DNA of 64,000 nt from a virus. Position 1 is the stretch's first letter, and each line of letters begins with the position of its first letter. The notes beneath the pieces are model-generated. The model made no database searches. It saw only the letters and a list, made by a program, of their open reading frames with translations, and was not told where the DNA came from. The position numbers and the translations under genes were made by a program. The DNA lies in IMG/VR virus record IMGVR_UViG_3300034022_000278, positions 1 through 64,000 of that record; one strand, 5' to 3'. Of this stretch, positions 7,953 to 57,161 are shown piece after piece.

Positions 7953-9086
7953 TTAGTAGTATTCAATAGCAAACTGAAACTTAACATTAGAAAGTGTTCC
8001 ATAATTTGCAACACTAGATAATGGTTCTATTTGTAAATTTAAATAACCTGTTGCCCATACATCCGCTAATAAGCCTGTGTTAGGGTTAATAGCTTGCGAT
8101 ATATATTTATCGCCTATAATATTTACTACTGTACCTCCTTGAGAACTAATACCTGCGGGTAATATCATTTCTCCGTAACGAGTTCCTGGATCTCCTATAT
8201 TAGTAGATACATACGTACCTACAGGAGTACCTGGTATAATGCTGTTAGTGTCCTGGTATCCAGTTAAATTTCCAGATGAAATATATCCACTATTAACTTC
8301 TAATCCTGTAGTAATATCATAAAGTGTAGTTCCTATAGAACCTGCTAATGTAAATGTTGATTTATTTAGTAAGTTAGTATATACTTTTATTTTTGCAATA
8401 CCTGTAGCATACGGATTAAATTTAAAGTATACTCCAGAAGCATTACTAAATACTAAAGGTTTATTTCTCCCATCTTCAGATTCAGAATAAGCACCAAAAG
8501 TTGTACCTCTATTTATATAGTTTGTGCTATTATAAATAGAATAAATAGGATTAGTTGCTAGAGTTCCTCCAGATACTAAACTAGGAATAGTAATAATATC
8601 AGATAAATATTGTGTAGTTGCGGGCGCGCTCCATGTCCAAGCTCCAGGTAGAGGATTCTCTATACAGTAAAATGTATAAGGTTTGCCGTCTGGTGGAACT
8701 GTTGCAGGAACATTAATAGCGTAGTTATTAATTCTTCCTCCTATGTTAGAAGGATATAAAGTAATAATACCGTCAGAATTATTTACTATGATTGTTGTAC
8801 GGCCAGTTTTAGGTTGAGGTAATTTAGCTGCGTAATTAGTTACAGTGACAGTTCTAAATACATTTACTCCGTAATTTAAAACTGCAGTAGTACTTGCACT
8901 AGTATTATTTGCAATTAAATTGTCATAAACATCAGTAAAATCTGGCGTACCAGTACTTTCTAAAGGTACAACAATTCCGTATCTGTTTTTGTATGCTACA
9001 ACATTATTTTCTATACTTTTAAAGATATCTACTTCTAGACCGTCTTCATTTTGTGCATCTCTATTATATTTTTTTTCAATGTTCAT
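7953..9086 (-). CDS. Fibre/decoration protein
   Basis: 377 aa, T/S/N-rich beta protein directly after the capsid operon. Confidence 0.5.
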   Translation of the reverse strand: MNIEKKYNRDAQNEDGLEVDIFKSIENNVVAYKNRYGIVVPLESTGTPDFTDVYDNLIANNTSASTTAVLNYGVNVFRTVTVTNYAAKLPQPKTGRTTIIVNNSDGIITLYPSNIGGRINNYAINVPATVPPDGKPYTFYCIENPLPGAWTWSAPATTQYLSDIITIPSLVSGGTLATNPIYSIYNSTNYINRGTTFGAYSESEDGRNKPLVFSNASGVYFKFNPYATGIAKIKVYTNLLNKSTFTLAGSIGTTLYDITTGLEVNSGYISSGNLTGYQDTNSIIPGTPVGTYVSTNIGDPGTRYGEMILPAGISSQGGTVVNIIGDKYISQAINPNTGLLADVWATGYLNLQIEPLSSVANYGTLSNVKFQFAIEYY

Positions 9087-9109
9087 TGTATAGAATATTT
9101 GTAATAATT

Positions 9110-9159
9110 AAAAATATAGTAGCCCACCACTCGACAGCAAAATTCCGTGGCAGGCTACT
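9110..9159 (-). terminator. Terminator-like hairpin ending the capsid operon, with a 16-nt loop containing UUUUGCUGUC
   Basis: Minus strand: AGTAGCCTGCCAC-ggaattttgctgtcga-GTGGTGGGCTACT followed by ATATTTTT. The G.U pairs work only in the minus sense. Confidence 0.65.
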
Positions 9160-9171
9160 GGGGTTGGAGAA

Positions 9172-10461
9172 TTACACCATATCAAAGTTAGCAGCTGTCA
9201 AACCTAAAGCTTGAACAAATGTTTCACCGTTGTTTGCAGTCACTGTATCCAATAAACCTAATGGAGAAGTAGAGTCAAGATTCAAATAAACGAAAACACT
9301 ACCTTTTCCACCGTCCATAGAAACAAGACCTGAAATTGATTCTTCCCAAGCAATACCCAAACAAGAGTAACGAGAAGATAATACTGTATTTGTTCCAATA
9401 CCTGGAATTTTTACAAATTGGTCTCTTGAAATAGCAGGAGTAGAAGTTTGTTGCATTTCTCCTTCAAATCCATAACCCATGTATTCATCCATTGCAACTT
9501 GTTGCCATGTACCATTACCGTTAAATGCTCCTACCATGTGAGATACTAATGTAGTAGTATCAGAGAAAGTTGCAGTAAAACGATTAGCATAGTAATCACG
9601 GAATTGATTTACATCAAATGGTGCCGCAACACCTGTGATAGCGATACCCCAGTTAGTAACTGCAGTCAATTTACCGTGAGTAGTAGCATAAGCAGTACCA
9701 GTTGCTAAAGCAGTTACAGTAGTTCCTTGGAAAGCAACAGTTAACGTAACTGTAGTTGTAGAAGGTACAGTAGCTACTTCATAAGTTGCTCCTGCAATAA
9801 ATACTAAGTCACCAATTGCTAAAGAGTGTGCTGCTGAGTAAGTCAACAATTTAGATTGGTTAGTAGCTGCCAAAGTTGTAGCTCCAATTGCTGCTGCAGT
9901 ACCATCAGATATTGCTTCAAATTTTACATAACCATTTGCAGGTTCTTGATTAGTGAAGTTTCTGATACCACTTTTCATTAACAAAATAGCTAATTCACGT
10001 TGAGTACCAGCAGCATCTGTACGAACAGGTCCAGCAAATAAACTCATTGGCTGAGAACGGTTAGCTGCATCATTATCACGCTTACGTAATTTGATCCAGA
10101 AATCAGTAAAATTAGCCGCAGGAAGAGATCCTGTTGTACCATTATAACCGATTACTGATCTTTGTTGAACTGCAGGTTTGTGACGAGAGATAGTAAATTT
10201 AACTTTACCTTTAGTCAAAACAGGAGACTTCAAAAAAGATTTAGAAGTTCCACGACCCTCAACTACGAAGAATTTATCTCCATCAGCTAATAGCGCATAT
10301 TCAGTATTACTAATTCGTTGCATTCCTGCATTTACTAATACTACAGCTCCTGAAGGTAAGTTAGCAGGAGTAACAACTGTACCCACTGTAGGCAAAGTAG
10401 AACTTGCAACTGTACCATCGTTCAGTAATACGCTGAACACGTTGTTTGCTTTTCTTAACAT
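9172..10461 (-). CDS. Auxiliary capsid/structural protein (crAss gene-73-like)
   Basis: 429 aa, A/T-rich. Third gene after the MCP, as in the crAss conserved gene order. Confidence 0.6.
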   Translation of the reverse strand: MLRKANNVFSVLLNDGTVASSTLPTVGTVVTPANLPSGAVVLVNAGMQRISNTEYALLADGDKFFVVEGRGTSKSFLKSPVLTKGKVKFTISRHKPAVQQRSVIGYNGTTGSLPAANFTDFWIKLRKRDNDAANRSQPMSLFAGPVRTDAAGTQRELAILLMKSGIRNFTNQEPANGYVKFEAISDGTAAAIGATTLAATNQSKLLTYSAAHSLAIGDLVFIAGATYEVATVPSTTTVTLTVAFQGTTVTALATGTAYATTHGKLTAVTNWGIAITGVAAPFDVNQFRDYYANRFTATFSDTTTLVSHMVGAFNGNGTWQQVAMDEYMGYGFEGEMQQTSTPAISRDQFVKIPGIGTNTVLSSRYSCLGIAWEESISGLVSMDGGKGSVFVYLNLDSTSPLGLLDTVTANNGETFVQALGLTAANFDMV

Positions 10462-10495
10462 TTCTGTTTGTTTTTAAATTAATATTATTATTTAT

Positions 10496-11260
10496 TTATT
10501 CTAGTTCCTTAAAAGGTTCTACTATTTGCATTTTTTGTTCTTTTACTCTTTGATACATTAAGTCCATTGCTATATCTATTATAACTATATGGGTAGATGT
10601 ATCTAACTCGCAATTTTGTTGATTAGCAGGAGTATCTCTATCTACTACAATTGCTTGTGGATTTTTAATATATCGCATGTGATATATGTTTATGTTAAAA
10701 GTACCATCTGTAAACAACTCATGTCGTTTAGCAGTTGCAGGAGCAGTAGGCGATATACCTGTTACCTGTCTGGAGAATTCCGATCTCCATATTCTAGCAT
10801 CTCCCGAGGATTTGTAGAAAGGTTTTTTATATTTGCTCCAACTGAATCTCTGCATCTCGTTGTGAGCAATCTGGACAACATATCCTACAATATTAGTTGT
10901 TGTTCCACATGTCATTTTATCTATAGTACATTCTTCGTATATAGTGTACATGTGGTCTAACGGTAAATCAAAGAACTTTCCTGTTACATCTGTGTTCACA
11001 ATTATTCCTGCTTGTGATGCAGAAGGGGTTAGGGCAGGAGCATCTTTGATAAGTGCTCCCAAACCTTGATCCCTAATTTCTGTTTCTTGAAAGCCTTTAC
11101 CCTTTCTATTATTTAATTCGTCAAAGTATTTTTTAACATATAACTGCTCAGCCTCTGTTAGTACAGAAGATAATTCAAAATCTTCATAACCAGGGGAACC
11201 AAAACTATCACTTCTGTCTAGTTTCAATTCTAATTCATCGGCCATTTGGTTTGCAGTCAT
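10496..11260 (-). CDS. Tail ring/tubular protein (crAss gene-74-like)
   Basis: SPGYEDFELSSVLTEAEQLYVK...GFQETE...YIKNP...CELDTSTHIVIIDIA pattern and gene position. Confidence 0.65.
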   Translation of the reverse strand: MTANQMADELELKLDRSDSFGSPGYEDFELSSVLTEAEQLYVKKYFDELNNRKGKGFQETEIRDQGLGALIKDAPALTPSASQAGIIVNTDVTGKFFDLPLDHMYTIYEECTIDKMTCGTTTNIVGYVVQIAHNEMQRFSWSKYKKPFYKSSGDARIWRSEFSRQVTGISPTAPATAKRHELFTDGTFNINIYHMRYIKNPQAIVVDRDTPANQQNCELDTSTHIVIIDIAMDLMYQRVKEQKMQIVEPFKELE

Positions 11261-11263
11261 ATC

Positions 11264-12202
11264 TTAATTTCTTTTTGCTAAATCAATTTTTGCTTTTACT
11301 CTCAATTTTACTTCTTGATTGTCAGGGTTAAGTAAGTAGTTAATAACATCAGTCATATCTCCTAACTCAGCACCATTATCAAGTGTGTATCTTTTTTCAC
11401 CTTTACGAATAACTGCACCAGCTTCTACAGCTTCTTGTACAAAGATTCTTTCAGCATATTGTGGATGGTTAACAATCTCTAAGAAATATGTAGGATTACT
11501 GTCTACAATATTTAATACTTCGTTCTTCAACCATTCGTCATTTGCTGTAGCAGGTATAGTTCTACCAAGAGATTTAATAAATCCTATTGTAGCTGTTTTA
11601 CTATTTGTAATTTCTGCGTACTTAACAAAAGCATTTGCTTTAACACTAGCTTCTTCTAATTTCTTAGTAGTTACCTTGCTTTCGTCTACAATCATAAACT
11701 CATAAGTAGCTTTTAATGTTCTATCATCATAAGATGGTGATATACGCATTTTATCAGCTAACAATATAAGATACTTTAACATATCTAAAGACTGATTAAG
11801 ATTTAATGTTGTACCTTCTTTTGTAAGTACTACACGTCCTCTTCTGTCTGTTCTCCAGAAGTTATCCTCTTGCTTAAGTGTTGGGTTTAAATCCACACCT
11901 AATTCTTTTTCAAAGAACTCTTTTTGAGTCATTCCGTTAGGAAAAGACTCCATGTATTTTTGAACTTTAACTCTCTTTTGGTCGTCCAAAATTACTTTTA
12001 CTCCGCCTCCCAAGTTTGCATTATTAAGCGGAACTTGAAAGCTTCGTTTTGTTTTATTGTACATGAAAGGATCTTTTTTGTTATCCTGTCCTTGTACTAA
12101 TAAGGTACTCCATTTCCCCGATGATTCTACTGGTTTTATAGCTACGATTCTATTTTGTAGAAAAGATCCATAAATTTGTTTTTCAATTTTTGCTGTTTCC
12201 AT
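11264..12202 (-). CDS. Conserved crAss gene-75-like protein
   Basis: Immediately downstream of the MCP. Contains NFW...LNLNQSLDMLKY...YLLNPDNQE motifs. Confidence 0.6.
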   Translation of the reverse strand: METAKIEKQIYGSFLQNRIVAIKPVESSGKWSTLLVQGQDNKKDPFMYNKTKRSFQVPLNNANLGGGVKVILDDQKRVKVQKYMESFPNGMTQKEFFEKELGVDLNPTLKQEDNFWRTDRRGRVVLTKEGTTLNLNQSLDMLKYLILLADKMRISPSYDDRTLKATYEFMIVDESKVTTKKLEEASVKANAFVKYAEITNSKTATIGFIKSLGRTIPATANDEWLKNEVLNIVDSNPTYFLEIVNHPQYAERIFVQEAVEAGAVIRKGEKRYTLDNGAELGDMTDVINYLLNPDNQEVKLRVKAKIDLAKRN

Positions 12203-12235
12203 TTTTGCTGTCTTAATTAATTCTCTTTATTAAAA

Positions 12236-12271
12236 ATGTCCCCTCGAGGCGTTCAACTCCGAGGGGATCAT
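12236..12271 (-). terminator. Hairpin after the MCP gene
   Basis: TCCCCTCG...CGAGGGGA inverted repeat followed by a T-run on the minus strand. Confidence 0.6.
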
Positions 12272-12283
12272 TTCCTATAGTTT

Positions 12284-13795
12284 TTATCTTTCTACTGAAA
12301 GACGTAAATCTACTACTTTTGTAGGATCTTCGATCATCAATCCACCCCACTTCTGGAAGTGTACTGAGTAACCGTCTACTGGAGAAGCTACCATCTTTGG
12401 TGAACCTTTACCTGCAGGAGAGAAAGGATCTCTCATACCTGGGATATACGCCCAGTTGTAATCTGGAACTCCTTTTGGCTTAACTCGGTAGATACCTGCA
12501 TTGTCGCCATAATCCAAAGCAAGGATTCTGTGTGATTCAACAAGACCTTTTCCATCTGGGTGACGTTGTGGGAAGTAAACATCATCATCGAAGAAATCAA
12601 CGATTTCAACTTTGATAACAACTCCGTTGTACCATTCGTACACGTTCCACTGTGGTTCCATTAAACCTTTAGTGTTATTACCACCTAAGTTACCTGCATC
12701 TGTGTTAGACATCAAGAATTTATCAGAAATTACTGTGAATTTTCCTGTTCCTGATTTAGCTTGGATTTGCTTAGAGATTTCAATAGCACCGAATTCTCCT
12801 GTTAACAAGTGAATTACACGCTTACCTCTTTCAATTTTACCAACACCCATATCTAACAACAATTCTAAATGCCAGTCAAGGTCATAAGAGTTATAGTAGT
12901 GAACATTAGATGGAGCAATTTGCTCGAAGAAACCTGCACCTGATTCGATAGCATATTTAGTCTTGTCATCTTTGTTTAAATACTTGTGATCAGCTGTCCA
13001 GTTTTTCTTACCGTACATCAACATACGAGCAAACATTTCTTCACACTGGTGATGAGCTACCATATCTTGGTAGTTAATCCAGATTGATTCTTGTTGACCT
13101 TTGTAGTTAAATCCAAACTCTAATGGTTCGTTTTTACCTTTGTTGATAGTATTACCTGCAACTTCATACTCCATACGCAATGTAGAAGGACGATTTTCCA
13201 TTCTCCAAGGAGATGTAAAATACGGCTTAGCACCTTGGTAAGATAGAGTAGATGGAGACAAAGAGTAAAATTTAGACCAACGACCTCCGATAGACAATTC
13301 CTCAGAAGGAACAGACTTAGTAGAGCTATCAGTTACTAATTCAACTTCAACTTTGTAACGAGAACCTGCGTCCATAGATTTTTTAACCAACAAGTGGTAA
13401 TCATCTACTTCTCCACGAAGTACGTTAGTTTCTTCAAACAACGGTTCGTCAAAGATTAAGTAAAAACGCTCTCCGTTAGCACCAACATTTGCTGGGAAAG
13501 TCCCTGCAGAAATAGTACGTCCGTCAATTGTTTCAGCATCTACTAGAGGAAGATTCTTGTCGTGTTGACCTTGCAACATCCAGTTATAGAAACCATTTTC
13601 TTGTTCCACCTCTTTAACAGGGAAACGATCTACGAATTCACGTAATTTACCTTGAAGGTTAGTTTTGTATATCTGTTTGATAACATTACTAATCAACTGT
13701 GGCTTTTGTTGATACAAAGCGTGGAAGTGGTTATCTGTAACCAATCCATTGTAATCTTTAGCTTCATACCTTTGTAATGGGAGTAATTGAGCCAT
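12284..13795 (-). CDS. Major capsid protein (crAss-like, HK97 fold)
   Basis: 503 aa following portal and scaffold. Motifs GAGFFEQI, LLTGEFG, PFS...MVASPVDGYSVH...GLMIEDPT. Confidence 0.85.
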   Translation of the reverse strand: MAQLLPLQRYEAKDYNGLVTDNHFHALYQQKPQLISNVIKQIYKTNLQGKLREFVDRFPVKEVEQENGFYNWMLQGQHDKNLPLVDAETIDGRTISAGTFPANVGANGERFYLIFDEPLFEETNVLRGEVDDYHLLVKKSMDAGSRYKVEVELVTDSSTKSVPSEELSIGGRWSKFYSLSPSTLSYQGAKPYFTSPWRMENRPSTLRMEYEVAGNTINKGKNEPLEFGFNYKGQQESIWINYQDMVAHHQCEEMFARMLMYGKKNWTADHKYLNKDDKTKYAIESGAGFFEQIAPSNVHYYNSYDLDWHLELLLDMGVGKIERGKRVIHLLTGEFGAIEISKQIQAKSGTGKFTVISDKFLMSNTDAGNLGGNNTKGLMEPQWNVYEWYNGVVIKVEIVDFFDDDVYFPQRHPDGKGLVESHRILALDYGDNAGIYRVKPKGVPDYNWAYIPGMRDPFSPAGKGSPKMVASPVDGYSVHFQKWGGLMIEDPTKVVDLRLSVER

Positions 13796-13830
13796 TTTTT
13801 TCTTTTGTTATTAATTGTTAGACGAATAAT

Positions 13831-15021
13831 TTATTTATTTCCCTTAGTTGCTCTTTCAAGCAAACTTAGTATTCCTTCTGTTTTTTGAGAAGTTTCCATA
13901 GAGGTATTTCTACCTACTCCTCTTTGCTCTTCAGCTGCTATAACTTTATCTAGTTCGTTAATAGCGGCAGTCTTAGCAACTGCTTTTAATTTAGCAATAT
14001 CTGGTTTAAACTTACCTTCTTTATCTAAATTAAATAATCCCATAGTATCGTAGTAGTTAATTAACATCTCAAACTCTACAGGGTTTCTTTGTTGTTTATA
14101 CATTAAACTATTAAACTCTTTCCCTGATTTAGGGTCCGTGTAAACTGGGTTTACTATATTGCTTTTTAATTTATCCTTAGCAATTTTATTAAGACTTAAA
14201 CCATCGATGAAAGATTCTCTTGTATCAATGTGTCCTAATAAATTCTCAAATGCATCTGTCTGTGCTTTTTGAGCTGCTTTAGTCTTTAGCTCTTTACTGC
14301 TTCTAGACTCCTGAATAACTGATTGCGCTTGTGTCTTTAGTTCAGGAATTGCTTTTAGTGCCTTTTCCTCTAATTTATTTACTGCTAACGCATCGTCTAT
14401 CGCTTCTAATGCATCTGCATCTGAGAAGTTTTTAGCTTTTAATTGTTCAAAGTAGATTTGTTTCTGCAAATTTTCATCTGCTTTAATATCTTCTACTCCA
14501 ACACTATCAAAGAACTCTAATCTCTGTGCCATAAGAATAGCATTGTCGGTATCATCAAATGCATCTTCGATTTCTAAAAATCTTTTCTTTGCAGACGACA
14601 TGCCTTTTTTCCAATTCTCTTCTTTGGCCTTAAAATTTGTTTCAACTGTTTTGCTTACTAAATCTTTAATAGAATCAAATGTTCCTGGCATCTCGTCTAA
14701 CTTTTCCATCTCTTCAACGGTTAAGACTCCTGCTGTAACAAGTTCTTTCATTAATGCTTTGTAAACTATCTCATTCTTGTTCTCGTTAGAACCTGAATCT
14801 TTTGTCTCTGTTGCTGCTACTTGTGTAGCTTTGCTTTCCCGTGTAGTAGTATCGTCTCCTTTTTCCGCTACTACAGGTGTTAATGTAAATTCTTCTGCTG
14901 AATCTTCTAAAGGTTCTCCGCCTTCATTTTTTGATTCTACTGCTGAATTTAGTTCTTCTGCCGACATTATTTGAAGTCCTTCAAACAAGTCATTGATATC
15001 TGCATCCATATTTGCTGTCAT
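13831..15021 (-). CDS. Capsid scaffold-like protein (crAss gene-77-like); true start may be the second ATG at 15009
   Basis: Acidic N-terminus and coiled-coil, located between portal and MCP. Confidence 0.7.
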   Translation of the reverse strand: MTANMDADINDLFEGLQIMSAEELNSAVESKNEGGEPLEDSAEEFTLTPVVAEKGDDTTTRESKATQVAATETKDSGSNENKNEIVYKALMKELVTAGVLTVEEMEKLDEMPGTFDSIKDLVSKTVETNFKAKEENWKKGMSSAKKRFLEIEDAFDDTDNAILMAQRLEFFDSVGVEDIKADENLQKQIYFEQLKAKNFSDADALEAIDDALAVNKLEEKALKAIPELKTQAQSVIQESRSSKELKTKAAQKAQTDAFENLLGHIDTRESFIDGLSLNKIAKDKLKSNIVNPVYTDPKSGKEFNSLMYKQQRNPVEFEMLINYYDTMGLFNLDKEGKFKPDIAKLKAVAKTAAINELDKVIAAEEQRGVGRNTSMETSQKTEGILSLLERATKGNK

Positions 15022-15098
15022 TAATTAGTTACAATATTAAAAAAATTTTTATACATAGTCTATAAATTATTTATGAATTCATCTATAGTCCTATAGCT

Positions 15099-17534
15099 TT
15101 ATTTAGTCTTAGGTTTGGCATTAATCGCTTGTTTTTGAATTTCCTCTCTAGCTTGATTGGCTCTTTGAGTCTCTGCAAGTTTCTCTTCTGCTATTCTAAC
15201 CTGATCTTGTTTATACTTTTCATCTACATCGGTACGTCTAATATCTAAATAATCATCTATACCGTTATTATCTGTATCTACTCTTGCCCCATCTGCTGCA
15301 TGTCGACTATTAGTATTATCTTCTTTCATGCCTGCAATCTGCAAGTTAGCTGCGATCTGTTCTCGTTTTATTGCTATCTCGTCATCGTGGAATTTAATCT
15401 CTACTTGACGTTGTGCATCTTTGTCTGCCATAAGAGCTTTAGTCTGCTCTTCTTGAGAAGCCATTTTCTTCTCTTCCATTTGCTGTCCTTCTTCTTTAAT
15501 TCTTCTTGCAGAATCTTCTAGTCTTCTAGCAACTTCTTGTACAGACTCTGATTGTGTAATAGCAATAAGATCCGATATAGTAGCTTGGCCATTTTGAATA
15601 GCTGCTTGAGATAACGCTCTTAAGTCGTCATATAATTGCGTATCGTTTGTAGAATTAGATACATGAACATCATATTCTGAAGCTACAAACTCGTCAAATT
15701 TAGTCACAATGTGTTGGCCCATATCGTCTAATAAGAACTGACCCTTTTTAGGATTTTTCTTATAAGCATATTTACAAGCCTCTAAGAATTTAGTAAGAAC
15801 TCTTTTACGGAAGTTAGCATCTATTGCAAACCATTTCTCAGTAATGTGTGAAGTCTGTGATACTTCCATTTCTACACTACCGTTAGATTGTCTATTACTT
15901 ATTTGGCCTTCTCTAGCTCCTGATACACCTGCAACTTTACCAAGAGTATTTTCTATGTCTAACATCAGATTAGTATACATACTAATTTCGTTAGGGTCGC
16001 CTACTTGTATTTGTTGTGCTGTTAATGTGTTAAATGCTCCTGCAGATTTACCTTGTGAAGGTCCTTTAAGAATCTCATTAGTTGGGTCTAACCATGCAAA
16101 CTTATTAATAGTTACATAGCGCATCCACTCTTTTGGATCCCAACCAGATGGCACCAGTGAAGAGTTCAGGGCAGTGAAAGACCCTTTGTATGTAGCAATA
16201 GCTAATTCTCTTTTGTAATATGATATATCGTAAGAGTATGTAAATGGTTTCATTATATCCATCAATGATTGTACTTTGTAATCATTGGTACTATTTACAC
16301 TTCCTACATACGGAGGAGTTCCTTTAGATTTATTTACTAAAGATTTAGAAGCATAAGGTACAGGGCGCATTACTGTGTAAACGTGGTCAGCAATTTTAGT
16401 ACCTTCCATCCATTCGTTTACCCATATCCATTTTACTGTTTCTCCTAATTCTTTTTTAGGTTTATAATCTTCAGGAACCCAATCCTTTTGTTCTTGTCCA
16501 TCTTGATCGAAGAATGTAAGTTCCCCTACCTTTCTTCTACTTCTCCAACATACTTTCAATACTCTTACGTTTCCGTAAGTATCAAAAGCTCCTGAGAAAG
16601 TTCTAGTTCCCATTTCATTTGGGTGAAAAATACTTAATGCTCCTTGCTCTCCATAATAATCATAAACAGATACGTCACGATTAAGTCCGATACCACCGCC
16701 TCCAGCGGAAGCATCAGTTTTTCCTCGTTCTAAGAAATCTATATCGTCCTCTGATAACTCTTCCCAATAGTCATCTACTATTTGTCCTACAGATTTATAT
16801 CCGTATTCAACAATAATATCTGCATCTTCAATATACATAGAGTTGCCTCCCATTGTATATAAGTTCATCGGGTTAACTCGTCGCATAACAGGGTTACCTC
16901 CTAATACTCCGCAATACATTATTTCTTCACCGCTCACTAGTAAATCCTCAAAAGTGCGCAAGAAAGTAAAATCAAAATCCCCTTCTTTGTATTCTTTTTT
17001 TAGTATTTTATTAGCTGTAATTTCAGCTACATCCTGGTATTCGTAAGTTTGATAATTCTGTAATTTCTGAAGTCTCTTTTGTATTTCTTCATCAGAAATT
17101 GAAGTAGTTTTAATAATGCCTGTTAACTCAGCTTTAATTTGCTCCATTAACTCAGCTTCTTTTCTCCCAATACCATCAGTATCGTTAGCTGATATATAAG
17201 CTTTAAATTCTTTTTTTCTTTTAGAGTATTCTCCTAATAGTAAATTAATTTTAGAATTCTCAATGCCCACATGCTGAAAAGATGCAGGTAAAGACTCGAG
17301 ATCCAGATTGTCTGGATTAATAAATTTTTCAAAATCCTTAACGTTGATTATATTAGCCCTTAAATTATAGTTAGCTTTTTTATTCTTAAAGTTAGAACGT
17401 AGGTTTACATCAGAAGTTAATAAATGCTCTGCAAAATCCATATTCTTTTTAAACCAATTGTCATCTTTTTTGGAATCAGGTAGCTTCTGTCTAGGGAAAC
17501 TAATATATCCTTGCATTTTAACTGGAGAACTCAT
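15099..17534 (-). CDS. Portal protein
   Basis: 811 aa directly after the terminase. FPRQKLP N-terminus, KINLLLGEY, WVNEWMEGTKI, GVSGAREG and a C-terminal coiled coil, typical of crAss portals. Confidence 0.85.
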   Translation of the reverse strand: MSSPVKMQGYISFPRQKLPDSKKDDNWFKKNMDFAEHLLTSDVNLRSNFKNKKANYNLRANIINVKDFEKFINPDNLDLESLPASFQHVGIENSKINLLLGEYSKRKKEFKAYISANDTDGIGRKEAELMEQIKAELTGIIKTTSISDEEIQKRLQKLQNYQTYEYQDVAEITANKILKKEYKEGDFDFTFLRTFEDLLVSGEEIMYCGVLGGNPVMRRVNPMNLYTMGGNSMYIEDADIIVEYGYKSVGQIVDDYWEELSEDDIDFLERGKTDASAGGGGIGLNRDVSVYDYYGEQGALSIFHPNEMGTRTFSGAFDTYGNVRVLKVCWRSRRKVGELTFFDQDGQEQKDWVPEDYKPKKELGETVKWIWVNEWMEGTKIADHVYTVMRPVPYASKSLVNKSKGTPPYVGSVNSTNDYKVQSLMDIMKPFTYSYDISYYKRELAIATYKGSFTALNSSLVPSGWDPKEWMRYVTINKFAWLDPTNEILKGPSQGKSAGAFNTLTAQQIQVGDPNEISMYTNLMLDIENTLGKVAGVSGAREGQISNRQSNGSVEMEVSQTSHITEKWFAIDANFRKRVLTKFLEACKYAYKKNPKKGQFLLDDMGQHIVTKFDEFVASEYDVHVSNSTNDTQLYDDLRALSQAAIQNGQATISDLIAITQSESVQEVARRLEDSARRIKEEGQQMEEKKMASQEEQTKALMADKDAQRQVEIKFHDDEIAIKREQIAANLQIAGMKEDNTNSRHAADGARVDTDNNGIDDYLDIRRTDVDEKYKQDQVRIAEEKLAETQRANQAREEIQKQAINAKPKTK

Positions 17535-17560: not shown

Positions 17561-19738
17561 TTATGGATAAAAATTGGAATTAATAGTATTGATAGGTTTC
17601 TTTTTTAAAACACCCATCTTATCCCAATAGGGATTATCCATAAAACCTTTAATATCTTCTTTAAGTTTAACGTTCTCTTTGAACATTGTAGAGTCTAACC
17701 ACATTAGCATACCTAATGCAGAAACTCTGTCAAAGTTGCCACTAGGATTCCACATTACTAATTCTGTTATCATAGCAGGAGAATATAATGTCTCGTACAC
17801 TCTTGTCTCAGATTTCTCTGAGATTCTCTCTTGCAACCAAGACTTAATCATATTTCTTGCTTCAGCATTAACTGTACCAGATGCGTTAATACCTTTAGAA
17901 GTATTAGTTCCTGCTTTATAAGTATCTGTAGATCTTAATTGATAAGGAGTATCTGCAAGTAAGTAAGTACACTTATTTTGGTCAAAGTAATTGTAAAGAC
18001 CAATAAGGTTTTTCTCGTACATTCCTATTGCATTATAGTACAACAACATCTTACGGCATACTTCGTAGAAATCTTTTGCTTCCCCTGTACGTCCTGTATA
18101 CTCGGCAACTATTTGTCGAGTAAAACGATTCAATATAATTATAGACGGCAAGGAATCAGTAGTGGATTTATCTTTATCTACAACGTCGATTCCTGCGATG
18201 TGCACTCCTCTCGGCACTACACCTTCGTCATTCTTTTGGGGTTTTACCCACAATTCTATGCAACTTCTTTTGTCGTCATTGTTATTAAGTGGAAACTTTC
18301 TAATAGGTTGTGCATCTTGCTCTGTAAAAAACTCAGGTTCGTTGGCAGAGTTAAAAGATATGTGGCCTTTAAAAGATGCTTCTGTATATTTCTTATACTT
18401 ACCTCCCTCTACTTCAGCTAGTTGTTCTTTAAGTTGTAGCGTAGGGAAGAATGCTCCTTCTAGAACTAAGAATGCTTCACTCGGAACCATTGGTCCGTTG
18501 ATAATTTCTGTTTGATATACAGTCGGGTCGGGTGATTTTTTTGCAATAGACCGTCTGTATTCTATATTTACTCTTGCTAGCGCTTCATCTGTTTCTAGAT
18601 TAGGGCCTTTCTTAAATTCATTTTGTACTAATGAGTACGGCACAAAGTATCCTATCTTTCCTCTATGCTCAAATACATCATCAAATTCTACGCAGTTATA
18701 ATCTTGTGGATTTCTAAATATACTTTCTGCATATAATGCCGCTCTACCTGATACAAGCCCACCCGTTCCTAGGGCCCATATTACAAGGTTTTTCTTAGCC
18801 TTTGCTGCTTGGATAGCTTCAATAGCTCCCCAAGATTCCTTTATATTATACATGAAACCTACCTCATCTAGTGCTACTAAGTTGGCACGAGTACCATTGG
18901 CTGCTAGTGGATTATCTTTAAAGGTTCTGTGGTATAATTTAGATTTAGAAAGTGCTGCTGTAATATATTTGTTAGACTGTAGCGACCCTGTGTAGTTTGA
19001 GAATAGCGGTGCGGGGTATTCTTCATCGCCTATGGAAAATCCCCCAGGTAATAACTCAAATGCCGTCTTTACCTTAGCTACTAATGGTTCGGTGTATTTA
19101 GTATCAATTGCACCGATGATACTTTCTGACGAAGTATATTGTTTTAATTTTCTTCTTGATAAATAATCGTCGTAGTCTGTAGCTCCATCAAATAAAAAGT
19201 TATGGGCAACTATTGCTGAAGTAGAATAAGACTTACCCGACCCCCTTGCTTGTATAGACATAAAATGCTTTGCTGCATTTTTGTATAAAGGCTTACCTAA
19301 AGATTTACCGTGGTTTCTTCTTAAGTATTCTCTTGCGGGAACGTAAGTCATTTTCTGAGATTCTGCTTCAGTAATCCTTTTAAGGATGATTGAGATTGCC
19401 TTATCTGGTCCATATCTTCTATCGCATGTATAAACCTTGTCCCCTGTGAATCCTGAAAAGCCCCGACACTCGTCATAGATAAGAAATAATTCCCAATCTA
19501 TATCGCGCAAAAACGGCAGACCAAATGCTTGTGCTACAGACGTATCGTCTTCAAATTGTATATTGTGAAAGTTGATGTAATAGTATAGAGGGCCTGGCAT
19601 CCACTTGCCCCCGACCCAATAACCTTCTATGCACTTACGCTTTTCTTCTTTCCAAAAAGCAATACGTTCATAGTATTCTAATTCAGGATGATAATTAGGA
19701 ATATCTTTAAGTCTAAAATTAGAATTTTCTATTATCAT
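17561..19738 (-). CDS. terL: Terminase large subunit
   Basis: Walker A ARGSGKS, Walker B VALDEVG, motif III GTGG, and a nuclease region GIDVVD...NFDRVSA. Confidence 0.9.
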   Translation of the reverse strand: MIIENSNFRLKDIPNYHPELEYYERIAFWKEEKRKCIEGYWVGGKWMPGPLYYYINFHNIQFEDDTSVAQAFGLPFLRDIDWELFLIYDECRGFSGFTGDKVYTCDRRYGPDKAISIILKRITEAESQKMTYVPAREYLRRNHGKSLGKPLYKNAAKHFMSIQARGSGKSYSTSAIVAHNFLFDGATDYDDYLSRRKLKQYTSSESIIGAIDTKYTEPLVAKVKTAFELLPGGFSIGDEEYPAPLFSNYTGSLQSNKYITAALSKSKLYHRTFKDNPLAANGTRANLVALDEVGFMYNIKESWGAIEAIQAAKAKKNLVIWALGTGGLVSGRAALYAESIFRNPQDYNCVEFDDVFEHRGKIGYFVPYSLVQNEFKKGPNLETDEALARVNIEYRRSIAKKSPDPTVYQTEIINGPMVPSEAFLVLEGAFFPTLQLKEQLAEVEGGKYKKYTEASFKGHISFNSANEPEFFTEQDAQPIRKFPLNNNDDKRSCIELWVKPQKNDEGVVPRGVHIAGIDVVDKDKSTTDSLPSIIILNRFTRQIVAEYTGRTGEAKDFYEVCRKMLLYYNAIGMYEKNLIGLYNYFDQNKCTYLLADTPYQLRSTDTYKAGTNTSKGINASGTVNAEARNMIKSWLQERISEKSETRVYETLYSPAMITELVMWNPSGNFDRVSALGMLMWLDSTMFKENVKLKEDIKGFMDNPYWDKMGVLKKKPINTINSNFYP

Positions 19739-31144: not shown

Positions 31145-31522
31145 ATGATTACAATTTTTAGAAATGGATATGTACTTTTATTAAGTTACAGTCCTTGCGA
31201 AGTCTTTACTTATTTTAATGTAAAAGAAATGCATGGCTTATCTTACATAGAATGTGATGCTTATGCAAATACAAAAGATAGTGCTTATATAGCAGGGTGG
31301 AGTAACTTTGTGCCTAAAGAATTTGGTGAATATACAAATGATAATCCAAGATATGTATTTATAAACTTGTCGAGGTGTGGTACAGACATTGAAACATTTG
31401 GATTGATTATGCATGAGTTAATGCATCAGTCTTTTCACATGCATAAAGATGAAGAGGACATAATCACATGGGCTGAGTTAGAGTCCTATGAAGTATTTAA
31501 ACTTGTAAAAGAAAACTTATGA
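31145..31522 (+). CDS. Small zincin-like protein
   Basis: HELMH motif followed by EE. Confidence 0.55.
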   Translation: MITIFRNGYVLLLSYSPCEVFTYFNVKEMHGLSYIECDAYANTKDSAYIAGWSNFVPKEFGEYTNDNPRYVFINLSRCGTDIETFGLIMHELMHQSFHMHKDEEDIITWAELESYEVFKLVKENL

Positions 31523-31686
31523 CAGCAGTAGAATGGTTAGTTGAGCAAATTAAACAGAATGTACATAATTCATTTGAAGAATTTGAATTGTTAATTGAAC
31601 AAGCAAAACAAATGGAAAAGCAGCAGATAAAAGAAGCATACCTAAGAGGCATTAAGAATTATGACCCAACCTTTAAATCAGAATAA
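31519..31686 (+). CDS. MTAVE-family small protein, paralog 1 (not in track)
   Basis: MTAVEWLVEQ...AKQMEKQQIKEAY...TFKSE. Confidence 0.65.
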   Translation: MTAVEWLVEQIKQNVHNSFEEFELLIEQAKQMEKQQIKEAYLRGIKNYDPTFKSE

Positions 31687-53120: not shown

Positions 53121-56100
53121 TTATTCTATAGTTCTTTGTCCTGTTCGATATAATCTTATTGCTTGAGCTCCTATAGGAAGCGCTTCGCCTAAGTGTACTA
53201 AGAACTTACTGTTACCTTTAAAAGGACCTCCTTCAAAGATATCATCGTCATCTTTATCATTTAAATAACCTCCTACATCACCTACTAAACTGTTAACATC
53301 TTCTACTAATGCCGCCATTGGCACAGCAGTTTTAGTTAACTTTTCAAACTCCAAAGGATTAGTATAAAAGCCAATATCTGTACGGAGTCTTATAGTTTGA
53401 TTAAGTAGGAAATTAGTTATAATTTGATCTTCTTCATCGTCATCGCCTGCCATTGCTTTAAGAAACAATGCTATACCCATAAGAGTCATCATTATGTATA
53501 ACTCAGTCATATTTTTACGAATATTAGCTGCATCCGTATCATCAAATCTTTCACCAAATTGGGTTTTCTTAAACATTAACTTTCTTGCTAATTGTTTAAG
53601 AGTAAATAAAGTATCAGACACTGCGTTCTCGTTAGTCTGCATACCAAAAAATTTACCCCCCAGATAGCCAATACCTGCGCCTAAAGCAGTACCTACTCCT
53701 GGCAAAAACATAGTACCAACTGCAGCACCTGTAGTTAATAGTTGTCCTTTAGTATAACTTTTATATCGACCTTTACGTATATAAGGTTCATCTAATCCAT
53801 AAGATAATGCGTAATCTACTTTTTCTGATTCAAATCTATTAGCAAATCCTTCAAACATCCAAGTTCTAAATTGAGAAAGAGCTCTACCGCCTATAGTAGA
53901 TTTTACTTGAAGGGCATTATTGTAATCCCCATGGTTCATCTCGATTACTCTTTTGATTTTCTGAACCATTTTGGTCTCATCGATATCTGTAGTAAAACCA
54001 GGTTTTAATGTTCCACTTTCAATATCATAAGCATCCCACATAGTAACAACTTCACCGTCGGGACCTGTAGCAGGAAACTGTGGAGAATTATCAGGTTTCT
54101 TAGACATCATTACTGCAATCATTACTGGAGCATAATTTAAATACTCGGAACGTTCCTGCAAACTAAAAGGCCCAAATCTTTTTAACTTAGACATTGAAGA
54201 TTTTTGAGACATGTCAAACATTTCTTTATTAGAAGTTTGAAGTAAATCCCATTTATCCATTAATGTTCTAATTTTAACACCATTACTATTTACACCTTCC
54301 CAAGCATTAAAAGATAAGTTCTTTCCTATTGAGTTAGTAGTAAGTAAATAAGCTTTTCTTAAATCTGTTGCTGAGTATTCTCTACCATCAGCTCCTTGTA
54401 CCATATTAGAAATTACCCCAAAACCAATATTAGAACTGGCAGAGAAAAAGTTCCACCCTAAGCCTTTTAAAGTCATATACTTTAACACAGTATCACCTAC
54501 TCCAGATAAAGTTCTAAAACCACCCAAAGAATCAATTTGACCTTGTAGGAAGTCTTTGGAATCTTGATCAGTTTCGGTTGCTAATAAAGCTTCTAATTCT
54601 TTTTTTCTAGTTTCTTCTGCTTTAGTATATAATTTAGTTTTAGAAACTCCTTCAACTTTTCTACCGCCTATTCCATAAAAAGTAGAATCCATGAAAAAAT
54701 CCCACGCAGATTTTAAATTATCTAAACCCTCTTTAGTAAGAGGTTTACCATTTTCATCAAATTGAGATTGCCCTGCTTTATTTGTTACTAATTCTTTACG
54801 ACTTTTAAAAGCTTGCTCAAGTAGTTTAATTTGGGGCTCTATAATAGATTTATGCTTGTAAGCTAAAATATTAAGAGAATATGCCTTAAGTATTTTAGTT
54901 ACATCCCAAGATTTTTCTTTAGATATAGCATCTTTAGCTTCTCTATTAAATCTTAGATTATCTTCATTTGTAGCAGCTTTACCAGTTTCCTGTTTATGCT
55001 GTATTTGCATCTGCTTTACTAACTCTCTAACTTTTACAGCAGTATCTTCAATAAATTGTATTTGAATATTTTTTTCTATATTACCTGTTAAAGGATCTAC
55101 ATCGGAATATACAGTAGTAGCTAAATCGGTAGTAGTTTGCAGTTGCTTCATTTTATCCCAAAAAGGAATAATACCCATCATTATACCTTTCTCCTGGAAA
55201 GTATCCATTAAACTTTTTTGAATAGTAGGCAATACACCTACGCCCATTAAAGCTTTCTTTTGTTCAGGGAGAGTATATCTTAAAGTATTTAAAGTTTCCA
55301 TCATATAATTATGGTAATTATATAATGCATCGTCTGCTTCTATTTTAGCATAGTTTTTATCGTACCATTTAGTAGGACCATTTACAGTTTCTTTACGAGG
55401 AACTTGTACAATATATTCCCTAATTCCTTTAGGAGAATAAAAAGAATCCGCTCCTTTTTTTCTAGAAACAGGGTTTTCAGCCATATCCATGCCCCAATAA
55501 GGTGAATATTCTTTTAACCAATTTTCAAATAAAGTATCTTTTTCATCTTGAGATAAATTAGGCTCCATTTGCATGCTTTCGTAAATAGCTTTTCTACGAA
55601 TCTTAAACTGCTCTATTTTATTTTCTACTCTTTTAATATAATACTCGTAACCTTTTTCTCCTAATTGAGATTTTAATTCTGCGATATGTTTTTGTTTAGA
55701 ACCTTCATTATAAGAAACTCTTTTATAGATAAATTCTGCGGGAGTACTTTCATCTTCTTGTAAACTATCCTCAAATAGAATACGAGGGTCAAAAGAAATA
55801 GTATTTTTATTAGTCCAATCAAAATATGCTTTAATGCCATTAGCATTTTTAGTTAATTTTTTTGTTTTAGGATCTCTTGACCAAAAAGCTTTTTTCATTA
55901 ACTCATTACGTACTTCAAAAAATTCAGATGAAAATCTATTTACAGTTCTACCTGTTTCTTTACCATCCTCTGTTAATTGTTTTAATATATCAAAATTACC
56001 GCCTGATTTTTTTAGAAATTCCTTAGTTAAATTGTCTAATTTTTTCCACATTTCTGAAGCCTCTTGCTGTGCTCGCATGTTTGCAGCTTCTACTGCAGAA

Positions 56101-57155: not shown

Positions 57156-57161
57156 AATGTT

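Follow-up and report, generated by a model that had tools for sequence, protein, structure and literature searches.

Complementarity between a terminator loop and two start regions of its own capsid operon suggests a 3'-end RNA regulator in crAss-like phages

Based on the sequence comparisons reported here, we suggest that the 3' end of a phage capsid operon probably, though by no means certainly, functions as an RNA regulator of two upstream genes in the same transcription unit. The apical loop of the hairpin that closes this operon contains TTTTGCTGTC, which is complementary to GACAGCAAA(A) directly upstream of two start codons, that of the scaffold gene and that of the gene following the major capsid protein (MCP) gene. 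Conservation and covariation between loop and starts support, at the level of sequence, that a loop-to-start RNA interaction is under selection, acting in cis or as a 3'-UTR-derived sRNA as proposed in an earlier sequence-only reading.

Results

The window is a stretch of 64,000 nucleotides, positions 1 to 64,000 of IMG/VR record IMGVR_UViG_3300034022_000278. The source phages are a group of uncultured crAss-like phages. The genes and neighbouring elements considered here are:

15028-15042, minus strand: block TTTTAATATTGTAAC, near-invariant in 63 aligned rows
13831-15009, minus strand: scaffold-position gene, an ORF of 392 aa counted from the conserved ATG, with a name that reflects its location between the portal and MCP genes
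12284-13795, minus strand: MCP gene (phrog_11589, E 9e-65)
12232-12266, minus strand: post-MCP terminator, hairpin 12266-12240 and T-run 12236-12232, with a stem that covaries in relatives
11264-12202, minus strand: 312-aa post-MCP gene (phrog_16383), previously called gene-75-like
10496-11260, minus strand: tail ring protein 3/4 gene (Pfam PF25710, E 9e-22)
9172-10461, minus strand: 429-aa gene, an ORF that closes the transcription unit, with both seeds described below in its 3' UTR

Neither the scaffold-position gene nor the 429-aa gene has a match in Pfam or PHROG, and the homologues of the 312-aa gene found in crAss genomes carry the annotation double-stranded DNA binding domain protein. 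Relatives lack the first scaffold ATG (15021) and, therefore, the ATG at 15009 is the real start. The TTTTAATATTGTAAC block is likely a Bacteroidota-type -7 promoter box of the scaffold-MCP transcript, a reading based on TAnnTTTG, which we take to be the consensus; TTAATTTTGTAAAC-like boxes are present at the corresponding place in other clades. If so, the leader would measure about 20 nt, with the target word of the scaffold start close to its 5' end. By reading of the relatives' alignment, no conserved TAnnTTTG box is present between the MCP terminator and the post-MCP ATG, and the post-MCP gene is probably reached by read-through.

The elements involved in the complementarity are:

9167-9174, minus strand: second seed E1' TAATTCTC, overlapping the stop codon 9174-9172, single-stranded and upstream of the hairpin
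9118-9159, minus strand: predicted hairpin of the intrinsic-terminator type (5' arm 9159-9147, loop 9146-9131, 3' arm 9130-9118)
9133-9142, minus strand: loop seed E2' TTTTGCTGTC, with the core GCTGTC at 9138-9133, always in the predicted loop
9110-9117, minus strand: T-run ATATTTTT, adjoining the 3' side of the stem; ACTAT(A/T)TTTT in relatives
12218-12225, minus strand: leader element E1 GAGAATTA, complementary to E1' at the operon stop codon
12203-12212, minus strand: target E2 GACAGCAAAA, adjoining the ATG (12202-12200) of the post-MCP gene
12187-12196, minus strand: partial second copy ACAGCAAAAA, in codons 3-6 of the post-MCP gene
15011-15019, minus strand: target E2 GACAGCAAA, before the conserved scaffold start codon (15009-15007)

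The hairpin downstream of the 429-aa gene begins 12 nt past the stop codon, and its 13-bp stem contains eight G-C pairs and is followed by the T-run, as in an intrinsic terminator. Two of the pairs are G.T and form in the minus sense only, which places the hairpin in the gene-sense RNA, in agreement with the sequence-only reading. The predicted fold has an energy of -24.1 kcal/mol (z -3.1), and among 42 aligned relatives 8 of the 13 stem pairs show compensatory changes on both sides. The apical loop (GGAATTTTGCTGTCGA) is 16 nt long in the window and 7-47 nt among relatives compared to 3-8 nt in a typical terminator, and a consensus terminator scan that allowed loops of 3-8 nt did not list this hairpin. 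A search with the Rfam covariance models of both strands of 8800-15300 gave no match at E<=1. The 3' UTR is much more conserved than the neighbouring coding C-terminus of the 429-aa gene. No conserved promoter for a 3' fragment was found; TAACTTTG, 9 nt before the stop codon, is present in the window but is not kept in relatives.

In every fold, the seed is in the apical loop and the targets are in the ribosome-binding window, at -20 to +20 of the ATG or covering it, as described for loop-presented antisense regulators of the c4 and RNAIII type. The loop has a perfect 10-nt complement at 12203-12212 (duplex -14.6 kcal/mol) and a 9-nt complement at the scaffold start (-13.8 kcal/mol), while shuffled loops give -6.2 and -7.2 kcal/mol. 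Both target regions are accessible, with folds of -1.6 and -1.8 kcal/mol. At the scaffold start, GACAGCAAAT occupies 15019-15010, upstream of the second ATG (15009). Upon re-reading of the sequence, the coordinates given earlier for the hairpin (9118-9159) and the start sites (12203-12212, 12187-12196 and 15010-15019) were all correct. AATTAA had been noted before both start sites; this is the case in the window, where the scaffold site has an additional T, and does not extend to the relatives, in which the corresponding sequence is A/T-rich only.

The loop 9-mer is found four times in the window compared to 0.53 expected, and none of 100 shuffles reaches this count. With four places in 88 kb, the motif is not frequent elsewhere. 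It is, however, not confined to the hairpin and the two starts, as had been claimed, because a fourth copy is present at 15479-15487 on the minus strand inside the portal gene. This copy is the sole extra one in the whole 88,042-nt record, is shared by one of 31 relatives and looks like a chance occurrence. Among all 16-mers of the window, 3.5% (start window of 15) to 4.3% (start window of 20) are complementary over at least 9 nt to the start regions of two or more genes, and 26% equal the loop in the number of 9-mer complements anywhere in the window, while none of 3000 shuffled loops matches both starts equally well in the window genome. A single genome alone is only suggestive, and it is the comparison with relatives that decides. 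For seven genomes, the shuffled-loop P for both targets was 0/3000, 3e-4, 0.012, 0.33, 0.048, 0.005 and 0.0013. In five of the seven, the match at the weaker target is not equalled at any other gene start; one other start equals it in L189 and seven do so in L141.

Among relatives, GCTGTC is unchanged in 45/45 hairpins and in 42/42 aligned rows, while loop length and flanks vary. GACAGC is present at the scaffold start in all 63 relatives of the first set and in 51 of 53 distinct relatives (absent in two), and within -40 to +27 of the post-MCP start in 68 of 73 (absent in five). In 48 of these 73, a copy lies just past the post-MCP ATG, and 28 have both copies. Over relatives of 81-100% MCP identity, the loop word and both start words are co-conserved, and in 31 loci of at least 15 kb the hairpin loop and the two starts are the only places conserved in every locus. 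Two more distant lineages, L127 (64% MCP identity) and L198 (about 50%), have the same loop word on unrelated stems and retain both start words, with a complementarity of 6 nt only. The complementarity is absent in two related clades (L164, L165, L172) and in Cellulophaga phage phi14:2 despite the same gene order.

In four sub-branches of a clade at about 56% MCP identity, the loop contains (G/T)TCTGCC and both start codons GGCAGA. Both sides are replaced jointly in this clade and complementarity is kept; the co-conservation anticipated in the sequence-only reading is, thus, borne out among close relatives and extends to a joint switch in a distant clade. In a matrix of loops versus starts for nine chosen genomes, the mean complement is 7.8 nt within a class and 1.1 nt between classes for the scaffold gene, and 7.0 versus 0.4 nt for the post-MCP gene, i.e. 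the matrices are block-diagonal. A further compensatory change is found within the clade, with GTCTGCC/GGCAGAC in L141 and L144 versus TTCTGCCAT/ATGGCAGAA in L194. The target in this clade spans the ATG and codons 2-3 (Met-Ala-Asp/Glu), and coding constraint, therefore, accounts for part of its conservation. At the L141 post-MCP gene, for which the shuffled-loop P is 0.33, there are six Watson-Crick pairs (eight with G.T). Because the core words are invariant within a class, the compensatory evidence for the loop pair amounts to one or two switch events plus flanks with weak effects (permutation p 0.04 and 0.10, kinship ignored).

The second complementary pair, E1/E1', varies more. E1' is conserved though the last 15 codons just upstream vary strongly. 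The best E1/E1' word has 16 forms among relatives, about 15 of them of at least 6 nt, and the distinct word pairs include GGAGAATTTA, TGGAGAAAAA, AGAGAGAAAA, CGAGAGAAAAA and TTGGGAGA. In 46 genomes, the mean complement is 7.78 nt within a genome and 6.49 nt across genomes (permutation p<5e-5, kinship ignored), and in 17 type representatives it is 7.82 versus 5.97 nt (p<5e-5, kinship ignored). Compensatory change of seed and target is, thus, found for GCTGTC/GACAGC versus TCTGCC/GGCAGA and for E1/E1', with kinship ignored in both comparisons. The scaffold start of L137, which lacks GACAGC, carries an 8-nt complement to E1' instead. E1 is absent in L014 and L015.

Discussion

We suggest a model in which the 3' end of the portal-scaffold-MCP-ring-protein unit would offer two single-stranded seeds, E1', a C/T-rich word over the stop codon of the last gene, and E2' in the large apical loop of the terminator. 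The partners of E2' would be the translation-initiation regions of the scaffold and post-MCP genes, and that of E1' a purine-rich leader word of the post-MCP gene. As would be expected if the host is of the Bacteroidota type and does not use Shine-Dalgarno sequences, the two target regions are rich in A and lack structure, and for this reason a duplex of 8-11 bp within -20 to +20 of the AUG would most likely prevent the 30S subunit from binding. As a consequence, both proteins would be turned down after the distal end of the operon is transcribed. From complementarity, conservation and covariation we infer physical pairing and repression, either in cis on read-through transcripts or in trans by a stable 3' fragment protected by the hairpin. 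In line with a 3'-UTR-derived sRNA, the terminator is shared with the mRNA and a conserved seed is complementary to the targets. Because E1 and E2 have the same 5'-to-3' order as their partners, the two pairings could not form a single continuous helix; by a geometric argument, they may both form at once. The effect on translation would presumably serve capsid stoichiometry.

It is unlikely, but deserves consideration, that the pairing is real and serves mRNA fate, i.e. that a contact between leader and 3' UTR closes a read-through mRNA or directs its processing, in which case stability or the ratio of transcript isoforms would change. The complementary words of the post-MCP gene are in the leader and the 3' UTR of one putative read-through mRNA, and the MCP terminator just upstream implies several isoforms. 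However, the target tracks the start codon (-20 to +20) and covers the ATG in the distant clade; such placement is a prediction of start-site occlusion, while end-to-end protection does not require it. Moreover, about 5.9 kb separate the scaffold target from the hairpin, and L137 is the one case in which this target has an E1 partner.

We consider it very improbable that a phage or host protein recognizes the words as sites in double-stranded DNA, present in both orientations, an alternative raised in the sequence-only reading. One word on opposite strands would fit an orientation-free DNA site, and the scaffold copy is 12 nt downstream of the conserved promoter-like box. By contrast, the antisense copy is in the apical loop of an RNA hairpin in every lineage despite unrelated stems, the L127 post-MCP copy overlaps the ATG in a 12-nt intergenic gap without a promoter, E1/E1' covaries independently, and G.T is the only pairing available to one core position and some extensions. 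The sites are also 3-6 kb apart, non-palindromic and tied to start codons rather than promoters, unlike operators.

Equally improbable is a loop that is the operator of an RNA-binding protein and only incidentally complementary to the starts. RNA hairpins bound by proteins typically combine a conserved loop with a variable stem, and some E. coli sRNA terminator loops act "likely without base-pairing", in the wording of PMC11979758. Such an operator would leave unexplained the exact complement kept at two start regions, the joint switch of both sides in another clade and the covariation of E1/E1'. Finally, chance together with shared ancestry and coding constraint is hardly credible and already disfavoured. 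In its favour, this A/T-rich genome abounds in short complements, the words ACAGCA and GGCAGA double as codons for Thr-Ala and Ala-Asp/Glu close to N-termini, and in other clades the ring-protein genes begin ATGACAGC, but the neighbouring sequence has strongly diverged, the loop/start matrices separate by class, the shuffled-loop P is low in six of seven genomes and the same two genes are matched in every lineage.

Returning to the proposed 3'-end regulator, we speculate, with considerable doubt, that it is a two-seed trans-acting RNA in which the seeds define specificity classes (GCTGTC/GACAGC and TCTGCC/GGCAGA, and a third that may be AGCTCT/AGAGCT) and which could also serve in interference or incompatibility between phages. 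These classes would have arisen repeatedly or turned over across the environmental Crassvirales radiation, and the RNA would hit any co-infecting relative with a common seed, as c4 does for P1 and P7.

In Rfam and the literature searched, we found no earlier description of this hairpin/start-site system, no post-transcriptional regulator of Crassvirales and no paper with both "Crassvirales" and "sRNA"; in a 2023 review of Crassvirales the words promoter, UTR, hairpin and non-coding are absent. Little is known about how protein ratios are set during assembly in phages of Shine-Dalgarno-poor Bacteroidota. If true, our model would extend 3'-end-derived regulators and terminator-loop seeds to morphogenesis operons of DNA phages, and would provide a rule, a terminator loop complementary to start sites of its own operon, by which any phage genome could be searched. 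The hypothesis is open to mutational test, and the relatives in effect supply compensatory mutants.

Several known systems share parts of this design. In phage lambda, sib is a downstream RNA element that controls an upstream gene on one transcript via RNase III cleavage and decay, while start-site pairing is proposed here. In MS2 and Qbeta, long-distance pairing hides a start site, but these are RNA genomes with kilobase-scale folding rather than the operon mRNA of a DNA phage. Hairpin loops in the 3' domain of Staphylococcus aureus RNAIII, including that of the terminator, block initiation on several mRNAs by pairing with their ribosome-binding sites. RNAIII is a long RNA in its own right, with C-rich loops directed against Shine-Dalgarno sequences, whereas the seed described here is in the operon's own 3' UTR and its targets lack Shine-Dalgarno sequences.

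The seeds of known 3'-end sRNAs are usually single-stranded, upstream of the terminator and dependent on Hfq or ProQ; to our knowledge, the likely Bacteroidota hosts lack Hfq. In the present case, the terminator loop itself contains one of the seeds, and the targets belong to the same operon. The operon end resembles the class of sRNAs from mRNA 3' ends (reviewed in PMC9438474) in having a terminator common with a coding mRNA and a conserved seed against translation-initiation regions. The terminator loops of the E. coli sRNAs SdsR, RseX and ArrS, which act on fepA, illustrate that an RNA can regulate through the loop of its intrinsic terminator; in PMC11979758, the target structure is far upstream in a long 5' UTR. 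In contrast to that mechanism, the loop described here matches start regions by perfect complementarity, and loop and starts covary.

The c4 RNA of phages P1 and P7 uses two short complementary segments, one over a ribosome-binding site, and the specificity of P1 and P7 arises from covarying changes. According to PMC8198154, c4, icd and ant1/2 form one operon (immI), and full repression of ant requires C4 antisense RNA. Our model is similar in that a phage RNA in the operon of its targets would block expression by short complementarity. However, c4 is excised from the leader, at the 5' end of its operon, while the RNA proposed here is a 3' UTR with its terminator; host phylum, sequence and structure are unrelated, and the target of c4 is an antirepressor, while the targets here are morphogenesis genes.

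Operon and relatives

In the structural operon of this crAss-like phage, the 3' end carries two words, predicted to be single-stranded, whose complements lie in the translation-initiation regions of two genes further upstream. Comparison with relatives shows that this relation has been maintained and re-made in divergence. The source record is linear with a length of 88,042 nt and a G+C content of 32.6%, and the window is its first 64 kb. PHROG and Pfam scans place the crAss-like structural module in the minus-strand block from 153 to 23030.

Genes of the structural module
17561-19738, minus strand: large terminase (PHROG and Pfam scans)
15099-17534, minus strand: portal (PHROG and Pfam scans)
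13831-15009, minus strand: scaffold-position gene, here the scaffold gene (no PHROG or Pfam function)
12284-13795, minus strand: major capsid protein, MCP (PHROG and Pfam scans)
11264-12202, minus strand: 312-aa gene, the gene after the MCP
10496-11260, minus strand: tail ring protein 3/4 gene (PF25710)
9172-10461, minus strand: 429-aa gene, last of the unit (no PHROG or Pfam function)

The PHROG and Pfam scans assigned a function to none of the scaffold gene, the 429-aa gene and a 377-aa gene. Megablast of 9000-15200 against GenBank phages gave no matches, and because the best named MCPs are only ~30% identical to that of the window, the phage has no annotated close relative; many relatives are present in IMG/VR. 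Gene leaders in the window are A-rich and without a Shine-Dalgarno sequence, and several genes are preceded by promoter-like boxes of the type TAnnTTTG, which we take to be the Bacteroidota promoter consensus. Both features would fit a Bacteroidota host. The block TTTTAATATTGTAAC (15028-15042, minus strand), ~20 nt 5' of the scaffold ATG, is near-invariant in the window and in the IMG/VR relative loci L001-L080, and other clades carry TTAATTTTGTAAAC-like boxes at the equivalent place; it probably serves as a -7 promoter element of the Bacteroidota type. The sequence AA(A/G)CTATAGGA is present in exactly two copies (12273-12283 and 15089-15099, minus strand), at the MCP and portal stop codons, and both copies precede a covarying hairpin. 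As an enriched motif after these stop codons it was rejected, there being no enrichment with one mismatch allowed. Elsewhere in the window, the interval 53121-63962 (minus strand) contains two ORFs of exceptional length (1344 aa and >2266 aa), the second of which overruns the ORF caller's start; together they presumably represent the virion RNA polymerase block of crAss-type phages.

A terminator loop complementary to two start sites

Read in the minus sense, the hairpin at 9159-9118 has a 13-bp stem with two G.T pairs, followed by ATATTTTT, and its 16-nt loop (9146-9131) includes TTTTGCTGTC. The complement of the loop, GACAGCAAAA, is located at 12212-12203 with its last base adjoining the ATG of the 312-aa gene, a partial copy of the target at 12196-12187 lies within codons 3-6 of the same gene, and GACAGCAAA is located at 15019-15011, upstream of the second ATG of the scaffold ORF. 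The first ATG of this ORF (15021) is seen only in the window and a few relatives. Because the TAATG of the window is replaced by TAAC or TAAA in relatives, 15009 is the true scaffold start and should be annotated as such.

The sequence-only reading had claimed complementarity between the terminator loop and the start regions of two genes lying upstream; the hairpin, the loop and the complementary words are all where it placed them. Its statement that the 9-mer occurs only at these positions did not hold, as an exact count finds a fourth copy at 15479-15487 (minus strand). This is the sole additional copy of GACAGCAAA in the 88-kb record and lies inside the portal gene with an in-frame ATG immediately 3' of it. 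Present in only 1/31 relatives, it is probably due to chance and was rejected as an internal start or third target. On the plus strand, a 55-aa ORF of the opposite-strand module begins ATGACAGCAG (31519-31530), with the target word at the start codon.

The 9-mer, a motif picked after being seen, occurs 4 times vs 0.53 expected. The genome is A/T-rich, and 3.5-4.3% of its 16-mers find complements of 9 nt or longer in the start regions of two or more genes. A more telling control is to shuffle the loop itself: none of 3000 shuffled loops matched both starts equally well. The duplex energies are -14.6 and -13.8 kcal/mol vs about -6 to -7 for shuffled loops, and the target regions are nearly unstructured (-1.6 and -1.8 kcal/mol). 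In the window genome alone, the complementarity exceeds chance only moderately.

Conservation among relatives

The first set of relatives comprised the best 80 of 160 MCP matches in IMG/VR (90-100% protein identity), from which the hairpin region was recovered for 44, the after-MCP region for 77, the scaffold region for 62 and all three for 33. GCTGTC, the core of the loop word, is kept in 45/45 hairpins including that of the window (38 distinct sequences), and GACAGC, the core of the target word, lies at most 10 nt upstream of an ATG in 63/63 scaffold regions. Of the 43 distinct hairpin regions, 42 were aligned (L127 has an unalignable stem and was omitted); the alignment predicts 13 pairs, 8 of them with two-sided pair-preserving changes, and its six GCTGTC columns are invariant. 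Loop length and flanks differ among relatives (e.g. ACGCTGTCTA and TAGCTGTCT). Beside the conserved 3' UTR, the 429-aa gene finishes with 15 codons (9172-9220 in the window, minus strand) that are hypervariable among close relatives, with several unrelated endings.

Wider sets consisted of further loci fetched by MCP homologues of falling identity. At an MCP identity of at least 80%, GACAGC is found 6-12 nt upstream of the ATG in 51 of 53 distinct scaffold starts, the exceptions being L100, with AACAGCAAA, and L137. For the gene after the MCP, it is found between -40 and +27 in 68 of 73 distinct starts at the same identity, with an upstream copy in 48, a downstream copy in 48, both in 28 and neither in 5; four of these last five have CAGCA-type remnants. 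Placement was surveyed across 31 distinct loci with a length of 15 kb or more. Sense-strand GACAGC is present at the scaffold start in 31/31, and 44 occurrences fall at the start of the gene after the MCP. Sense-strand GCTGTC lies 3' of the last gene in 31/31; in two of these, ORF calling assigned it one gene further. The sole other recurrent site is internal to the MCP gene (12/31 loci).

Unrelated stems and two seed classes

In L127 (MCP identity 64%), the terminator stem is wholly different and the 7-nt loop reads AGCTGTC. Its sense-strand GACAGC is confined to two sites, the scaffold start and a position overlapping the start codon of the gene after the MCP (ATGACAGC); this start codon lies within a 12-nt intergenic gap. 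In the metagenome locus L198, from the branch near P0098 (~50% identity), the stem is again unrelated and encloses the loop GGCTGTCA; the leader of its gene after the MCP contains GACAGC, and ATGACAG is present at the scaffold start. A clade at ~56% MCP identity, with sub-branches L141, L144, L189 and L194, has large-loop terminators after the homologous gene (about 430-480 aa). Here, the loops have (G/T)TCTGCC in place of GCTGTC, and both target genes start ATGGCAGA(C/A), or ATGGCA/ATGGCAGG.

Longest perfect complement to the loop in the ~56% clade
L144: scaffold start, 9 nt; gene after the MCP, 7 nt
L189: scaffold start, 10 nt (CGATGGCAGA); gene after the MCP, 8 nt
L194: scaffold start, 9 nt (ATGGCAGAA); gene after the MCP, 9 nt (ATGGCAGAA)
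L141: scaffold start, 8 nt; gene after the MCP, 6 nt (8 nt with one G.T)

Directly 3' of GGCAGA, L141/L144 have C and L194 has A; in the loop, the corresponding difference is G vs T. A loop-vs-start matrix of 9 genomes, picked to represent sub-branches out of about 200 loci, is block-diagonal for the two classes (GCTGTC/GACAGC vs TCTGCC/GGCAGA): for the scaffold gene, complementarity is 7.78 nt within the same class (n=41) vs 1.10 nt with the other class (n=40, maximum 6), and for the gene after the MCP 7.02 nt vs 0.40 nt (maximum 4). Two other comparisons, of complementarity across clades (11 genomes) and of shuffled loops (7 genomes), likewise used genomes picked from about 200 loci. In a midpoint-rooted MCP tree, the two seed classes are not sister groups, and they may have arisen by seed turnover or by independent origin.

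Ring-protein genes of several clades (L150 9813-9836; L141 about 9477; window 11260, minus strand) start ATGAC(A/T)GC(A/T)AA(C/T)GA(A/G)ATGGC(A/G)GAC, which encodes Met-Thr-Ala-Asn-Glu-Met-Ala-Asp. The ring-protein coding sequence of L150 contains both class words, GACAGCAAA and GGCAGAC.

A second complementary pair

TAATTCTC (9174-9167), over the stop codon of the 429-aa gene, is complementary to GAGAATTA (12225-12218) in the leader of the gene after the MCP. These two words, referred to as E1' and E1, respectively, change jointly in relatives, in the pairs listed here and in others.

Jointly changed word pairs
TAAATTCTCC with GGAGAATTTA: L034, L040, L096
TTTTTCTCCA with TGGAGAAAAA: L122
TTTTCTCTCT with AGAGAGAAAA: L083
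TTTTTCTCTCG with CGAGAGAAAAA: L137
TCTCCCAA with TTGGGAGA: L100
TTTTCTCTT with AAGAGAAAA: L140
TCTTTCTCTC with GAGAGAAAGA: L183

With phylogeny ignored, the mean complement over 46 distinct genome pairs is 7.78 nt for self vs 6.49 for other genomes (0/20,000 permutations), where L069, L089 and L092, scored 0 with the anchor matched at the TAG stop codon, were retained and lower the self mean. With one representative per type (17 types), and phylogeny again ignored, the values are 7.82 vs 5.97 (0/20,000 permutations). The leader word E1 is lost in L014 and L015. In L137, GACAGC is absent at both starts while the loop still has GCTGTC; in place of GACAGC, the starts have complements of 8 nt and 11 nt to the C/T-rich word near the stop codon, and at the scaffold start GAGAGAAA, immediately 5' of the ATG, is complementary to E1'. 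Because the scaffold start of this locus matches E1', the stop-codon-proximal word behaves as a second seed.

On the 3' UTR, E1' and the loop word stand in the same 5'-to-3' order as their complements on the target RNA. Pairing would thus give a helix next to the stem and another within the loop, and not a single continuous duplex. Because this order is the same on both sides and not mirrored, we rejected an inverted duplication of a cassette and terminal inverted repeats.

Distribution of the pattern

Not all Crassvirales show loop-to-start complementarity. Cellulophaga phage phi14:2 shares the gene order, but its terminator has a small loop and complementarity is limited to A/T runs. In Clade C (L164, L165 and L172), the terminator has a 27-31 bp stem with a tetraloop, and a complement was not found. 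In Clade D (L148, L150 and L154), the interval separating two 3'-UTR hairpins contains (T/A)GCTCTAGCTCTTTT, matched by (A)AGAGC(T/A) just 5' of the scaffold ATG with complements of 6-10 nt, and a T/A vs A/T difference sets L148 apart from L150. This is a possible third seed/target pair, which we regard as a lead and not a finding because only three loci have both regions.

The element matched no Rfam family. A sigma-70 and terminator consensus scan, with a loop limit of 8 nt, missed the hairpin, and sigma-70 is the wrong promoter type for this host group.

A model for start-site regulation

Co-conservation and compensatory change in relatives support a loop-to-start interaction. The sequence-only reading had offered inverted protein-binding sites as an alternative; RNA is favored over recognition of duplex DNA because one word is held in a loop, variation is G.T-tolerant, two independent pairs covary and the target positions track the ATG. 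An independent sRNA with a conserved internal promoter was rejected, as the window has TAACTTTG before the stop codon and relatives do not keep this sequence.

In the RNA-pairing model, the partner words would pair as RNA, and pairing at -20 to +20 of the ATG would block initiation on A-rich leaders without a Shine-Dalgarno sequence. The 3' end would be made solely by transcripts that run past the terminators located 3' of portal and MCP. Its accumulation would therefore signal completion of the distal part of the unit, with feedback on the two target genes. Action could be in cis or in trans, the evidence being compatible with either, and the hairpin should protect a ~65-nt 3' fragment. Such regulation of start sites is a plausible mechanism, predicted from comparative evidence.

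RNAIII, lambda sib and the long-range pairings of MS2 provide parallels to this model. In the open-access texts that were searched, we found no description of such a regulator in Crassvirales. Similar logic is seen in the operon-encoded P1 c4 antisense RNA (PMC8198154), in 3'-end-derived sRNAs (PMC9438474) and in regulatory terminator loops (PMC11979758). The element described here would be a two-seed regulator, embedded in the terminator at an operon's 3' end and acting on the start sites of that same operon.
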